Shown: positions 3,573 through 9,592 of the stretch, one piece after another
How the letters are laid out: every line of letters starts with the position of its first letter
Position numbering within the stretch: the stretch's first letter is position 1
From: a virus
Lineage: Duplodnaviria; Heunggongvirae; Uroviricota; Caudoviricetes
IMG/VR virus record: IMGVR_UViG_2657245439_000005
Length of the DNA stretch: 9,592 bases
Reading direction: 5' to 3' (one strand)
Program-made: the position numbers and the translations under genes
The notes under the pieces: model-generated
What the model was told of the DNA's origin: nothing
The model's database searches: none
Seen by the model: the letters and a program-made list of their open reading frames with translations, nothing else

Positions 3573-3852
3573 CTTAGCCAGTTACGGCACCACACTTTGT
3601 CGCGGCTCCATAAATGCCCTCATCGTTGCACCCTGGTCTCTTCCCAGGCGTCAAACCGGATCGCCACGCTGGTTAGGCGTCTTATCAGCATCATCATTGA
3701 CTTGCACATTCCGGCTACCTGGTTTGTTTGCCCTAGCAAGGAGTGGATTGTTCCCTTTAACGTCCCCAGACCGCTAACGACGCATGTGCCATACGCCGTG
3801 TTACAACCAAATTTTGTTTGAATCTTGCCTGCCTCATGTTTCTTTTGGATAC

Positions 3853-3880
3853 ATTATGTATCTCATGGGTACATTGTCAA
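3853..3880 (-). promoter_or_regulatory. pL-like early-left promoter: -35 TTGACA (plus 3875-3880), 16-bp spacer, -10 CATAAT (plus 3853-3858)
   Basis: Minus strand reads ttttttatacTTGACAatgtacccatgagataCATAATgt. Perfect -35, 5/6 -10. Overlaps an operator-like palindrome. Confidence 0.5.
3856..3874. promoter_or_regulatory. OL-type operator ATGTATC-tcatg-GGTACAT (7-5-7), same architecture as the OR sites
   Basis: Sits between the -10 and -35 of the pL-like promoter. An adjacent palindrome GATACATtATGTATC lies at 3848-3862. Confidence 0.5.
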
Positions 3881-3907
3881 GTATAAAAAAACCTGCCGAA
3901 GCAGGTT
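3881..3907 (-). terminator. Rho-independent terminator immediately after the cI stop
   Basis: Minus strand: 7-bp stem AACCTGC/GCAGGTT with loop TTCG, followed by TTTTTTA. Lies 13 bp past the cI stop codon (3920-3922). Confidence 0.7.
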
Positions 3908-3919
3908 CATAAATATTGA

Positions 3920-4594
3920 TTAGGCCTTTATTGTGTATCTTCTTGGTTTTCCCGAGAAAATCACTGTACCAATTATAGAGCAATTACCGTTAATCTTAAT
4001 GTAAGGCTCAGGCCAGTTTGGGTTTAATGCTTTGAGATAACGCTGTGTTCCATCTTCTATCAATCGCTTGAAGGTGGTTTCGCCTGTATCGTGCATCAAT
4101 GCAATAACGTCGTCACCGTGGCAGGCAGGGACTTCGGGATCAACAAAAATCATGTCTCCAGGGCGGTACTCATCAATCATTGAATCACCAATCACCCGCA
4201 AGATATAAGTCATTTCGCCACAGGGTACAGGGCAGGGATACGTTTCTGCTGTGCTCAAATCAACCTCAGAATAGCCAACTTCTTTCCATGCTCCGGCCTG
4301 TACCCATGATATGACAGGGACTAACGTTATTTGTTTGTTAGTGATTGAAACATCAGGTTTTTTTGTGATGTTCGTTGTCTGGTGTTCTTGATCAAGCCAT
4401 CCGACAGGCAGGTCGAAACATTTTTCGATGTGCCGTGCCATGCTGTCACCGATATTTTTAGTAGCGCCATCCCCCATAAACCTGCTGGTTTGGGTTGGCT
4501 CGCGATCAATCATGGTGGCAAAGGATGAATTTCCGCCAACACCATCTCTCAGTTTTCTGGCGTTAGACCGCCGGATGTCATGGATTGTTTTCAT
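3920..4594 (-). CDS. cI: CI-type prophage repressor, HTH N-domain plus LexA-like S24 peptidase C-domain (224 aa)
   Basis: C-terminal half has the S24 autopeptidase signature (GDSM serine, downstream Lys in TFKRL) and a candidate Ala-Gly cleavage site (VQAGAW). Divergent from the cro-like gene; 224 aa as I recall for e14 CohE. Confidence 0.9.
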   Translation of the reverse strand: MKTIHDIRRSNARKLRDGVGGNSSFATMIDREPTQTSRFMGDGATKNIGDSMARHIEKCFDLPVGWLDQEHQTTNITKKPDVSITNKQITLVPVISWVQAGAWKEVGYSEVDLSTAETYPCPVPCGEMTYILRVIGDSMIDEYRPGDMIFVDPEVPACHGDDVIALMHDTGETTFKRLIEDGTQRYLKALNPNWPEPYIKINGNCSIIGTVIFSGKPRRYTIKA

Positions 4595-4600
4595 AACGAA

Positions 4601-4629
4601 ATTAAAACCTTTGTACCGATAAGGTACAA
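4601..4629 (-). promoter_or_regulatory. Candidate pRM for cI: -10 TTTAAT (plus 4601-4606) ending 6 nt before the cI ATG, with a weak -35 inside OR-a
   Basis: Minus strand reads cTTGTACcttatcggtacaaaggtTTTAATttcgttATG. This would give a near-leaderless cI mRNA, as for lambda pRM. Confidence 0.3.
4611..4629. promoter_or_regulatory. Operator OR-a, perfect palindrome TTGTACC-gataa-GGTACAA
   Basis: 19-bp perfect dyad (7-5-7) in the cI-cro intergenic region. Confidence 0.6.
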
Positions 4630-4634
4630 GTATC

Positions 4635-4662
4635 TTGAAGGTTCATTTCAATCATGTAATAT
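4635..4662 (+). promoter_or_regulatory. Candidate pR for cro: -35 TTGAAG (4635-4640), 16-bp spacer, -10 TAATAT (4657-4662)
   Basis: Hexamers read directly. The predicted start site falls inside OR-b. Confidence 0.45.
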
Positions 4663-4679
4663 GTATACCGGAGGTACAT
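4661..4679. promoter_or_regulatory. Operator OR-b, imperfect 7-5-7 dyad ATGTATA-ccgga-GGTACAT
   Basis: Shares the GGTACA(T/A) half-site with OR-a and OL. Overlaps the pR -10/start region and the cro RBS. Confidence 0.5.
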
Positions 4680-4684
4680 ATTGT

Positions 4685-4885
4685 ATGAAAGCGTATTGGG
4701 ACTCTTTAACCAAAGAACAGCAGGGCGAGTTGGCCGGAAAAGTTGGCTCAACACCTGGCTACTTACGGCTGGTTTTCAATGGTTATAAAAAAGCCAGTTT
4801 TGTGCTGGCGAAAAAACTTGAGCAATGCACGTCAGGTGCAATTACGAAATCTGACTTAAGACCGGATATCTATCCGAAAGATTAA
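4685..4885 (+). CDS. cro: Cro-like small HTH repressor (66 aa; Cro/YdaS-type)
   Basis: ATG at 4685 with GGAGG upstream. Divergent from cI across the operator region. The longer ORF from 4580 overlaps cI and is rejected. Confidence 0.8.
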   Translation: MKAYWDSLTKEQQGELAGKVGSTPGYLRLVFNGYKKASFVLAKKLEQCTSGAITKSDLRPDIYPKD

Positions 4886-4916
4886 CAGAACACCTTCAAT
4901 TTTTAACCACAGAACG

Positions 4917-5480
4917 ATGAGGCTAACCGTGGGTAAGTATCACTGGAAAGTAGAAAAACAGCCTGAGTGGTACGTGAAAGCTGTCAGAAAAACTATCGCA
5001 GCGTTGCCGGGTGGTTACGCTGAAGCAGCTGACTGGCTGGATGTAACAGAGAACGCATTATTTAACCGCCTTCGTGCCGATGGCGATCAGATTTTCCCGC
5101 TGGGATGGGCAATGGTTTTACAGCGCGCGGCTGGCACTCACTACATTGCGGATGCTGTCGCACAGTCTGCTGGTGGGGTGTTCGTATCGCTTCCTGAAAT
5201 TGAGGAAGTAGAGAACGCCGATATAAACCAGCGCCTGCTGGAAGTCATCGAACAGATCGGGAATTACTCAAAGCAGATTCGTTCGGCAATCGAAGATGGG
5301 GTCGTGGAGCCACACGAGCAGACAGCAATTAATGATGAGTTGTATCTGTCAATTTCGAAGCTCCAAGAGCATGCAGCACTGGTCTACAAAATCTTTTGCG
5401 CTCCAGAAAAGAGTGACGCCCGCGAGTGTGCAGCTCCGGGCGTCGTGGCGTTTTGTGTCTGTGGAGAAACTAACGCATGA
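4917..5480 (+). CDS. CII-like / YdaT-family phage regulator (187 aa), in the position of e14 ymfL
   Basis: Second gene after cro. N-terminal segment (PGGYAEAADWLDVTENALFNRLR) looks like a CII-type HTH. Family assignment is from memory. An alternative GTG start at 4929 has a better SD. Stop overlaps the next gene (ATGA at 5477-5480). Confidence 0.65.
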   Translation: MRLTVGKYHWKVEKQPEWYVKAVRKTIAALPGGYAEAADWLDVTENALFNRLRADGDQIFPLGWAMVLQRAAGTHYIADAVAQSAGGVFVSLPEIEEVENADINQRLLEVIEQIGNYSKQIRSAIEDGVVEPHEQTAINDELYLSISKLQEHAALVYKIFCAPEKSDARECAAPGVVAFCVCGETNA

Positions 5481-6313
5481 ACAGTTTAACGGCAAATAAC
5501 CGTTTGTCGCAACAGCTGGTGGTCAGTGTCGCTGAACACCTGTTGTTACGGCATGAATGCAGATTACCAAATCACCTGGCTGTAAGTAACCACAGAGAAC
5601 TTTACCTGACTGTGGGGGGCGAGTTGTGCGGGAACTTAACCGCTGGTTTCGTGACGGAAGAGGGCTTTATGTCCATGTTATTCGTTGGGAACCAGAAACA
5701 CAGCGCGTTATCTATCTTCGCAAAGACTACCCGCATGAGTGCTTTAGTCCTTTGTGGAAATTCAGGCGTGATTTTGTTGAGTGTGAAGGACCACCAGCAC
5801 ATTGATTCTGCCATTCCGGGACGTTACACTGTTCAGGCACCTTATAAAGCGGGTGACGGGATTGGCGTCCTGGAAATGTTATCGGCGATATATGACGCGC
5901 CAGCGTCTTTTTTATCGTCTGCGTCTGTGCACACCCAAATTATGGTGGGCTGGACGGGGGCACCGAAAGGTGCGCCGGTTTCCGATAACGCCGGTTACGC
6001 CAACCCCGTTCAGTTCACCACCAGCGAAATTGGCGTTTCCGGTGGTGAAGGTAATTCACTGTTATCGGAGGCTGCCATCATGGCTACTGTCCCAGCCCTC
6101 ACTCGTCTGAATGATGAAGACTTACATAAACTCAGTTATGTAACAACTGCACTACGTGCTCTGCGCAAGGTAACTCTTTCGGATCCGCAGGCGCATCAGG
6201 TTTTGGTAGAAACCCTTCTTAACTTGCAGGCTGAACGTATTCGTCTGGCGGATAAGGCTAATTTTCATATTCACCGTCTCCTGAATATCAGCGGAGGGCA
6301 TCGTCATGCTTAA
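5477..6313 (+). CDS. Hypothetical protein (278 aa), unassigned
   Basis: Long ORF coupled at both ends (ATGA at 5477; 8-nt overlap with the next gene). Weak GGAG 10 nt upstream. C-terminal half has a Gly/Ala/Pro-rich linker then a helical-looking tail. The N-terminal third is ambiguous because of a competing frame (see findings). Confidence 0.5.
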   Translation: MNSLTANNRLSQQLVVSVAEHLLLRHECRLPNHLAVSNHRELYLTVGGELCGNLTAGFVTEEGFMSMLFVGNQKHSALSIFAKTTRMSALVLCGNSGVILLSVKDHQHIDSAIPGRYTVQAPYKAGDGIGVLEMLSAIYDAPASFLSSASVHTQIMVGWTGAPKGAPVSDNAGYANPVQFTTSEIGVSGGEGNSLLSEAAIMATVPALTRLNDEDLHKLSYVTTALRALRKVTLSDPQAHQVLVETLLNLQAERIRLADKANFHIHRLLNISGGHRHA

Positions 6314-6542
6314 TCCGTTGATCCTCAATATTTGCCGTTTGCTTCAGCGTAAAAAAACATCAATTCCTACAGTTGGGCAGTGGTACACCACGCCTGCAGG
6401 GCATGTTCTACGTGTTAGCCTAGTTGACCGTGAATGTCAGAAGGTGATTTGTGAACCGCTGGGCCGTAATTACCGCATCAGTATGCCGCTTATAGCCTTT
6501 TGCTCCGGAAAAAACATGAAGCATCTCGGAGGTGCAGCATGA
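6306..6542 (+). CDS. Small hypothetical protein (78 aa)
   Basis: ATG at 6306 with GGAGGG 8 nt upstream. Stop overlaps the O-like start (ATGA at 6539-6542). No recognisable motif. Confidence 0.55.
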   Translation: MLNPLILNICRLLQRKKTSIPTVGQWYTTPAGHVLRVSLVDRECQKVICEPLGRNYRISMPLIAFCSGKNMKHLGGAA

Positions 6543-7369
6543 GTATGGAGCTGATGGTTAAAGCGATGAAAATTCGAGTGGGTAATCCATTGCGAAAACT
6601 GGTTCTGATCAAGCTGGCTGATAATGCCAGCGATCAGGGTGAGTGCTGGCCCAGCTACCAGCATATTGCTGACCAGTGCGAGATTAGCAAACGTTCTGTG
6701 ATGAATCATATTGCGGCCCTTTGTGATTCCGGGCTGGTAAAAAAAGTCACCCGGAAAGGTGAAAAAGGTAACTCAAGTAATATCTATCTCCTTCATCTTG
6801 ATGGTGCAGGAGATTCACTAGGGGGTAGTGCAAATAATTCACTATCTGGTGCAGCAAATTCACCAGGTAGTGCAGGAGTTGCACCAGGGGGTGGTGCAGG
6901 AGATTCACCCAGAACCAGTCACTCTTTTGAACCAGTCAAAGAACCAGTCAAAGAACCAGTCAATGAACCAATAGCTGTTGGTGCATCTGCTGATGAGTCT
7001 GTGCGAGTTCGTTCAAACCGACCGGAATACTCTCCGGAGTTTGAGCAGGCATGGCTGGCATACCCCAAACGTGCTGGTGGCAATTCAAAATCTGCAGCCT
7101 TCAAAGCCTGGAAAGCCCGTTTGAATGAGGGGGTAAAACCCGAAACCATGCTGGAAGGTGTGAAACGCTACGCGGGCTGGGTATCTGCGATGGGTAACAG
7201 CGGCACACAATTTGTGAAACAGGCTGTCACGTTCTTTGGTCCGGATCGTCATTTCGAAGAATCCTGGGAAGTTCCTGCGGTATCTGCAGCCAGACGCGAG
7301 GACCCGTACTTCAAAGCCAGTTACGACAACGTGGACTACAGCCAGATCCCGGCAGGATTCAGGGGGTAA
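6539..7369 (+). CDS. O-like replication initiator: N-terminal winged-helix DNA-binding domain, repeat-encoded linker, conserved C-terminal domain (276 aa)
   Basis: ATG at 6539 with GGAGG 7 nt upstream (the ORF from 6500 is an unsupported extension). N-terminus (LRKLVLIKLADNASDQGECWPSYQHIADQCEISKRSVMNHIAAL) is HTH-like. The linker is encoded by DNA iterons. C-terminal WLAYPKRAGGNSKSAAFKAWKA block is typical of phage replication organisers as I recall. Confidence 0.8.
   Translation: MSMELMVKAMKIRVGNPLRKLVLIKLADNASDQGECWPSYQHIADQCEISKRSVMNHIAALCDSGLVKKVTRKGEKGNSSNIYLLHLDGAGDSLGGSANNSLSGAANSPGSAGVAPGGGAGDSPRTSHSFEPVKEPVKEPVNEPIAVGASADESVRVRSNRPEYSPEFEQAWLAYPKRAGGNSKSAAFKAWKARLNEGVKPETMLEGVKRYAGWVSAMGNSGTQFVKQAVTFFGPDRHFEESWEVPAVSAARREDPYFKASYDNVDYSQIPAGFRG
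6802..6910. repeat. Five iteron-like direct repeats (consensus about GGT(AG)GTGCA..A.TTCAC, 21-25 bp period) inside the O-like gene; putative replication origin
   Basis: TGGTGCAGGAGATTCAC occurs exactly at 6802-6818 and 6892-6908, with three degenerate copies between. Same arrangement as lambda ori iterons inside O. Confidence 0.6.
6911..6970. repeat. Tandem 12-bp repeats GAACCAGTCA(A/C)(A/T), about 4.5 copies, adjacent to the iterons
   Basis: Read directly. Encodes EPVKEPVKEPVNEP in the O-like linker. Confidence 0.6.
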
Positions 7370-9401: not shown

Positions 9402-9496
9402 GGTGACCGTGAGAGCACTACTGACCCCTGAAATTGCCCCGCGTATGGGGATCGTATTGTTCAGACCAGGTTCAGAGCTGATGCCCCTGTTTATGC

Positions 9497-9515
9497 CTGT
9501 CTCTTATACACAAGT
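9497..9515 (+). mobile_element. 19-mer CTGTCTCTTATACACAAGT matching the Tn5/IS50 outside-end inverted repeat at 18/19 positions; possible IS terminal repeat
   Basis: Compared with the Tn5 OE (CTGACTCTTATACACAAGT) from memory; only position 4 differs. The sequence to its right does not match the IS50 interior as I recall it. Confidence 0.3.
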
Positions 9516-9540
9516 CCCCGAATCCGGGGATTTGTTATTT
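9515..9540 (+). terminator. Rho-independent terminator after the KilA-N gene
   Basis: Stem TCCCCG/CGGGGA with loop AATC, followed by TTTGTTATTT. Lies about 115 bp past the KilA-N stop. Confidence 0.6.
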
Positions 9541-9592
9541 CAGCCAAACTGCTTTCAGTTGTTGCGTGTGGCTACGCTTTCCATTCGGTAAT

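Follow-up and report, generated by a model that had tools for sequence, protein, structure and literature searches.

The last 96 nucleotides of the analysed DNA (positions 9497-9592) very probably represent the left end of an insertion sequence of the ISEc13 family (IS4 family, IS50 subgroup), in its 1,564-bp isoform, inserted in a lambdoid prophage, within a DUF968/YdfU gene that lies just before the Q-antiterminator gene. The window, meaning here the whole 9,592-nucleotide stretch of the IMG/VR record, stops 96 bp into the IS; the complete IS would continue past 9592, and its right end, the transposase gene and the other copy of the target duplication would lie beyond the window edge. ISEc13 is already known and the window shows an ordinary insertion-sequence junction. 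This is not a new kind of system, and the targeting of hairpin loops, together with a co-varying sub-terminal terminator, is a modest side observation. The features discussed below are as follows.

9409..9496, plus strand: 5' remnant of a DUF968/YdfU-family (HNH-like) prophage gene, about 29 of 329 codons, recognised from its homologue in E. coli C311
9484..9488, no strand: CCCCT, left arm of the target palindrome CCCCT-N8-AGGGG, the right arm of which lies beyond the IS, outside the window
9489-9496, no strand: left copy of the predicted 8-bp duplication, GTTTATGC, based on right-junction contigs and on the complete insertion in L008
9497-9515, plus strand: left terminal inverted repeat (IRL) of the ISEc13 family, CTGTCTCTTATACACAAGT, matching the Tn5 outside end except for T at position 4
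9497..9592, plus strand: first 96 bp of the 1,564-bp ISEc13 isoform, assigned by identity to plasmid copies; tnp would start at about IS position 180
9510..9535, plus strand: sub-terminal hairpin that shares the innermost IRL bases; a T-rich tail comes next, at 9536-9540

The window encodes an S24 repressor, Ash, a replication initiator, RusA, KilA-N and DUF968, and is a lambdoid early and nin region. Two Rfam matches above the gathering score were additionally observed on the plus strand, isrK (RF01394, 5837-5913, 55 bits) and C4 antisense RNA (RF01695, 5938-6025, 83 bits), both within the open reading frame at 5477-6313 that carries a Phage_ASH domain; the region resembles a c4-like antisense immunity module of the P1/P7 type, set in a lambdoid early region. 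Positions 6800-6970 contain four repeats of about 20 nt (GGTGGTGCAGGAGATTCAC-like) and three tandem 12-mers (GAACCAGTCAAA). They fall within a replication-initiator-like open reading frame (6500-7369, HTH_36/DnaD_N); the likely interpretation is a set of origin iterons in an O-like gene.

The position of the junction was established by comparison with uninterrupted prophages. A 693-bp query ending at the window edge matched 3,722 E. coli records and 71 phage records, and all of the listed alignments stopped at query position 597, which is window position 9496, the last base before the 19-mer. Prophage homology ended at this base in more than 2,000 E. coli prophages or genomes and in 44 phage records, the features under the flank match being a KilA-N gene and a DUF968/YdfU-family gene. 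The flank of E. coli C311 was 100% identical over 597 bp. The uninterrupted C311 gene encodes 329 amino acids with a DUF968 domain and a weak HNHc_6 match, is followed by a Q-type antitermination gene and reads ...CCCCTGTTTATGC|AGGGGCGTG... across the point of insertion; the uninterrupted target site reads CCCCTGTTTATGCAGGGG. Since the homology of more than 2,000 prophages ends inside the DUF968/YdfU gene, 9496/9497 is a true insertion junction. The IS leaves about 29 codons of the gene, which might alternatively start at an in-frame GTG at 9403. The original prediction had named intact homologous prophages as a test of its reading, and these lack the 19-mer at the homologous position; a phage-native origin of the 19-mer was rejected. 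No gene call is on record for the chimeric 62-aa open reading frame across the junction. The exact left junction of the window was absent from IMG/VR, from metagenome contigs and from 5,426 closed E. coli genomes.

The sequence on the right side of the junction was identified through plasmids. Window positions 9497-9592 matched, without a single difference (96/96), the left terminus of a 1,564-bp element found in 53 plasmid records, almost all of poultry origin, from Escherichia fergusonii and Salmonella (chiefly serovar Kentucky). One of the readings offered from the letters alone, the terminal repeat of an IS4-family relative running off the window, is thus the one that the complete ISEc13-family elements bear out. 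Both the inverted partner end and the DDE transposase that such a reading calls for were found in the complete elements sharing the identical left end, e.g., in L001, where the element occupies 3647-5210 and tnp 3826-5199. The single 457-aa open reading frame is annotated by NCBI as an 'IS4-like element ISEc13 family transposase'. It matched Tn5 transposase structures (1MUH, 1MUS, 4DM0 and others) over residues 6-453 with E = 5e-83, its D97/D188/E326 and YREK residues aligned with those of Tn5 transposase, and the two proteins were 38.6% identical (BLASTP). Pfam domains Tnp_DNA_bind, DDE_Tnp_1 and, weakly, Dimer_Tnp_Tn5 were detected, and NCBIfam model NF033590 scored 508 bits against a cutoff of 160. 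The Y-(2)-R-(3)-E-(6)-K signature and the DDE triad, which mark transposases of the IS50 subgroup, are both present in the complete L001 copy, the gene lying outside the window. The right end of the 1,564-bp element, ...AGATCTGATCAAGAGACAG, was identical (19/19) to the inside end (IE) of IS50 and contains two GATC Dam sites and the TGA stop codon of tnp. A sigma-70 promoter scan upstream of tnp returned no call.

Two insertion sequences are usually treated as isoforms at roughly ≥95% nucleotide or ≥98% amino-acid identity. The 1,550-bp form and the 1,564-bp plasmid element were 95.7% identical overall and 70% identical over the first 100 bp, which include 14 gapped positions; past this segment the two forms were 94-100% identical per 100 bp. 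They have the same right end, target type and DUF968 site in common, and differ in the end of the IRL (...AAGT in the window isoform, ...AAAT in the 1,550-bp form) and in the hairpin loop (GAATCC and ACCC, respectively). Judged by this identity, by the NCBI annotation and by the published length of ISEc13, the window probably carries a 1,564-bp isoform of ISEc13, a natural relative of IS50/Tn5. ISEc13 has been described as a 1,550-bp element of the IS4 family (PMC6650469), and the literature yielded inventory-type mentions of it only. For the IS50 subgroup, duplications of 8-9 bp and sizes of 1,350-1,550 bp have been reported (PMC2266710). Complete copies of the element agree with these values, their size of 1,550-1,564 bp being at or just over the range, and the right junction of the window's own copy would lie outside the sequence. 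The 1,564-bp isoform was found on Salmonella and E. fergusonii plasmids only, at two sites, plus this window; at ≥95% identity it was absent from the 5,426 closed E. coli genomes. The 1,550-bp form is common in E. coli: its left end was found at 28-29 places in the chromosome of EPEC E2348/69 and at up to 31 places per closed E. coli genome.

The 19-mer CTGTCTCTTATACACAAGT is the same end as that of the complete elements in L001 and other plasmids. When compared with the Tn5 outside end (OE), CTGACTCTTATACACAAGT, it matched at 18 of 19 positions, and the sole mismatch was A to T at position 4, as originally predicted. The further expectation that such a match would hardly arise by chance also held, as none of 200 dinucleotide shuffles of the window contained an OE-like match at ≤3 mismatches. 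The comparison with the mosaic end (ME), CTGTCTCTTATACACATCT, gave 17/19, with mismatches at positions 17-18. The OE and ME sequences were checked against PMC2566895, and OE and IE were verified on a genuine 1,534-bp IS50 adjoining aph(3')-IIa (L224). The end consensus of the IS50 subgroup, CW------Y---CA-A--W- with a 5'-CT start (PMC2266710, Table 1), is matched by C1, T2, T9, C13, A14, A16 and T19 of the 19-mer, and a DnaA-box-like core, TTATACACA, is kept within it. Neither an IE-like nor a second OE-like partner was found in the window, as expected if the contig stops inside the IS. The likeness to OE (18/19) and ME (17/19) is superficially what a laboratory artefact would give, that is, a mini-Tn5 or EZ-Tn5 junction or Nextera adapter read-through. 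However, the end is neither OE nor ME, a natural IS of wild plasmids has exactly this interior, and the insertion point lies at a natural consensus target which is also used by related natural copies. An OE or ME joined to vector, marker or adapter sequence was not what the window contained. The natural interior and the distinct end therefore exclude an engineered junction, which had been listed among the first options, and an artefact of this kind is scarcely credible.

It was also considered that the window might hold a solo or truncated end, with only an IS fragment following 9592 after deletion or rearrangement, which would join the prophage to unrelated DNA. The window stops inside the IS with the downstream part out of view, IS-mediated rearrangements are common where several copies coexist, and decayed left ends do exist. 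One such relic lies between rluA and yabQ/yabP in K-12 MG1655 (L002, 3001-3359) and is a decayed ISEc13-like left end, with a mutated terminus, CTGCCTCTTGTACATAAAT, and 87.8% identity to IS nucleotides 1-354 (approximately 88-92%). It is annotated as a pseudogene of a 'transposase DNA-binding-containing protein', and of the 5,426 closed E. coli genomes 2,081 (K-12 among them) have a single copy; its sub-terminal 60 nt are nearer to the 1,564-bp isoform than to the 1,550-bp ISEc13. In contrast, the 96 bp of the window are 100% identical to intact, apparently active copies, so that a decayed relic, another option of the original prediction, is unlikely even with the window ending inside the IS. 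Complete insertions moreover occur at the exact DUF968 site in other genomes, and a stop at 70-130 bp into the IS is typical of assembly breaks at multicopy repeats; many related loci stop within the same range. A solo end is accordingly improbable, and the window edge, 96 bp into the IS, is probably a short-read assembly break at a multicopy repeat.

The target duplication required a correction. A 9-bp duplication had been predicted, with TTATGCCTG at 9488-9496 as the candidate. This string in fact occupies 9491-9499 and takes in the CTG of the 19-mer, while the nine bases at 9488-9496 are TGTTTATGC. The candidate was rejected because it overlaps the terminal repeat, and the complete copies at the DUF968 site show 8 bp, GTTTATGC. 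In L008 a complete 1,550-bp ISEc13 is flanked at the DUF968 site by GTTTATGC on both sides, so the duplication at this site is 8 bp. Six IMG/VR contigs displayed the right junction GAGACAG|GTTTATGC|AGGGGCG. All of the informative contigs among the right-junction set (L004-L009) had the marker of the 1,550-bp form at -93, which rules them out as the right junction of the window's isoform, and they are therefore no record of the window's copy. For that copy an 8-bp duplication is predicted, with its left copy at 9489-9496. Among complete copies of the ISEc13 group the duplication was 8 bp in five and 9 bp in two.

The flanks of the ISEc13 group revealed a clear target preference. In 43 independent left flanks, C was present at each of positions -13 to -10 in 33-38, and a CCC run occurred in this zone in 39 of 43 flanks, versus 5.8% of random positions in the same loci. 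A mirror G-run was found on the far side of complete copies, as in GCCCC[CCTTATAG]GGGGC, CCCCT[GTATTAAC]AGGGG and CCCC[CTATCAGG]GGGG. The resulting consensus, CCCC-N-[N8]-N-GGGG, is matched by the window site, CCCC-T-[GTTTATGC]-A-GGGG, and both plasmid sites of the 1,564-bp isoform fit the C-run/G-run target as well. The empty window site, taken as single-stranded DNA, gives a hairpin of modest stability (-9.8 kcal/mol, z = -2.6). A plasmid site of the 1,564-bp isoform (L001 3180-3646/L228) was observed to lie in a hairpin just downstream of an IS200/IS605 tnpA, in the context GCCCC[CCTTATAG]GGGGC; the IS200C-ISEc13 arrangement seen there has been described as belonging to a conserved iroB virulence module (PMC13533425).

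The DUF968 site was occupied repeatedly. The 1,550-bp form was oriented as in the window in L008/L149 and also in L139, a second and much more divergent prophage background, whereas in L134 it was reversed. The window carries a different isoform and its flank was 98.7% identical to that of an uninterrupted prophage versus 97.0% to L008/L149, which suggests an independent insertion event in the window. Comparison of these sequences suggests that the site has been hit in at least four independent events. It is a recurrent hotspot, yet its occupancy is uncommon, because none of the closed E. coli genomes had the site occupied; no closed E. coli genome with an equivalent junction of the 1,550-bp form was found. 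The same observations bear on whether the contig is chimeric, i.e., a misjoin of a prophage contig with an IS from elsewhere, such as a plasmid. Such a misjoin would account for an isoform seen otherwise on plasmids only and for a junction missing from the public collections searched, and one low-coverage metagenome contig (L154) does contain a strand-flip artefact at the hairpin. However, the terminal repeat begins exactly at the join, and complete ISEc13 copies elsewhere use the same base, in a perfect CCCC-N-N8-N-GGGG target. A join at this base in a consensus target makes a chimeric contig very unlikely, and we retain a genuine insertion of the 1,564-bp isoform.

The original prediction also described a terminator hairpin next to the 19-mer. 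The hairpin itself is strong: its arms (9510-9520 and 9525-9535) enclose the loop AATC (9521-9524), the folding energy is -17.9 kcal/mol (z = -5.5) and none of 200 shuffles folded as well. As to the terminator, the consensus scan returned a terminator-like call for the ISEc13 hairpin on one strand only, the minus strand, and the stem is shorter and the T-run interrupted (ATTTGTTATTT). In 38 distinct hairpins of related elements, the stem started at IR positions 17-19 with invariant CCCC/GGGG pairs and then became variable, with compensatory changes in the stem (pairs 8-10 each represented by 4-6 pair types, pairs 11-12 by three). IR position 18 co-varied with its partner (A-T in 27, G-T in seven and G-C in four), and the stem was usually followed by a T-run and then GAAC. 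The hairpin is thus part of the IS rather than of the phage and, across related elements, has the anatomy of an inward-facing intrinsic terminator. It most likely blocks read-through from the flanking gene into tnp. As the elements insert into terminator-like hairpins, their own hairpin may also replace the terminator split by the insertion. The interrupted T-run and the minus-strand-only call argue that the terminator function is weaker in ISEc13, where termination may be bidirectional or weaker than in marine relatives. The metagenome contig L154, covered 1.4x, contains a perfect palindrome at 1457-1536, composed of flank, IRL, hairpin, inverted IRL and inverted flank, in which each arm corresponds to the left junction of a different insertion (compare L159). 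The palindrome was rejected as a 49-bp mini-element (IRL-hairpin-IRL'); it most likely arose as an artefact, through a strand flip at the palindromic hairpin during assembly.

The same end is shared by a wider family. The string CTGTCTCTTATACACAA(A/G)T followed by CCCC was located over 120 times in species-representative genomes, among them those of Vibrio, Shewanella, Neiella, Alishewanella, Budvicia, Serratia, Aeromonas and Photobacterium (loci L010-L129, with L025, L083, L104 and L112). The 108 independent flanks of this set showed an A-tract at -19 to -14, with A at -16 in 86, then a GC-rich arm, an AT-rich centre and G-C at -2/-1; AAAA was present in 72 of the 108, against a background of 6.5%. 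Each of the seven reconstructed empty sites folded strongly (-15 to -22 kcal/mol), into a hairpin whose loop lies at the centre of the duplication; the duplications measured 8, 8, 8, 8, 9, 10 and 12 bp. To judge from these sequences, the target sites of the wider set look like intrinsic terminators. An Alishewanella-like element of 1,480-1,481 bp was observed with duplications of 8, 8, 10 and 12 bp, symmetric about the hairpin centre. At most wider-set sites the A-tract lay on the IRL side, which may reflect an orientation bias or a prevalence of bidirectional terminators. We tentatively propose, as a possibility somewhat short of an even chance, that these elements, ISEc13 among them, form a large group within the IS50 subgroup, with a near-invariant OE-like end, specialised for the loops of GC-rich hairpins, mostly terminator-like ones with A/T tracts. 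The length of the duplication (8-12 bp) would follow the geometry of the hairpin top, and the terminator hairpin fused to the left end might insulate tnp and replace the destroyed host terminator. No report of terminator or hairpin-loop targeting by IS50-group elements was found in the searchable literature, which does not include the ISfinder and TnCentral notes.

The transposition that produced the window would have followed the Tn5 scheme. A DDE transposase of the Tn5 type would bind two 19-bp ends, the left OE-like and the right IE-identical, and cut-and-paste excision would be followed by a short staggered cut at the target, usually of 8 bp. Insertion prefers GC-rich palindromes composed of a C-run, 1 nt, an 8-bp core, 1 nt and a G-run. 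In the complete insertion, the right end of the IS (...GGAGATCTGATCAAGAGACAG; ...GATCAAGAGACAG) would run into GTTTATGCAGGGGCGTGTCC / GTTTATGCAGGGGCG, whereas the flank TGTTTATGC would mean a duplication of 9 bp.

Several consequences follow for the reading of such sequences. The right edge of the window is an IS junction, probably an assembly break at a multicopy repeat. An IS with terminator-like hairpins between the early region and the Q-antiterminator gene may lower the expression of prophage late genes. Although their proteins have diverged by approximately 60%, natural relatives of Tn5 keep near-identical 19-bp ends, in which position 4 is T, as in the hyperactive mosaic end. The preference for hairpin loops as targets may be of interest for Tn5 engineering, the annotation of terminators and the study of IS hotspots.

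Among known systems, IS50/Tn5 resembles the element in its ends and its protein. Both elements have 19-bp ends, the left one of ISEc13 matching OE at 18/19 positions and the right one matching IE at 19/19, including both GATC sites and the stop codon, and the transposases are full-length homologues with the same DDE/YREK residues and domain order. Nevertheless, IS50/Tn5 itself was rejected as the identity of the element: the left end differs, the transposases share 38.6% identity, and beyond the termini there was no meaningful nucleotide similarity. The early remark that the bases following the 19-mer do not resemble the IS50 interior was confirmed against a real IS50, to which similarity was limited to the termini. 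IS50 measures 1,534 bp and the window isoform 1,564 bp; the duplication is mostly 8 bp in the ISEc13 group versus 9 bp in Tn5. The Tn5 target consensus is A-GNTYWRANC-T, and the strong preference of the ISEc13 group for a C-run/G-run palindrome is unlike it. A terminator-like hairpin adjoins the left end of ISEc13, whereas IS50 has no comparable feature there. Control of IS50 by Dam and DnaA is established. The promoter-proximal GATC is located at IS position 144 in the ISEc13 isoform, compared with 53 and 58 in IS50; together with the DnaA-box-like core it may represent a regulatory parallel with IS50, and the element might be under Dam control. A second comparison concerns the target. IS231A inserts at GGG(N)5CCC and IS186 at GGGG(N)6-7CCCC; like the ISEc13 group, they use symmetric GC-rich targets that flank or include the duplication, the length of which varies within an element. 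The polarity of the ISEc13 group is different, with the C-run first, the G-run second and both outside the duplication. IS231A and IS186 also belong to other IS4 subgroups, with 5'-CA ends and duplications of 10-13 bp (PMC2266710).
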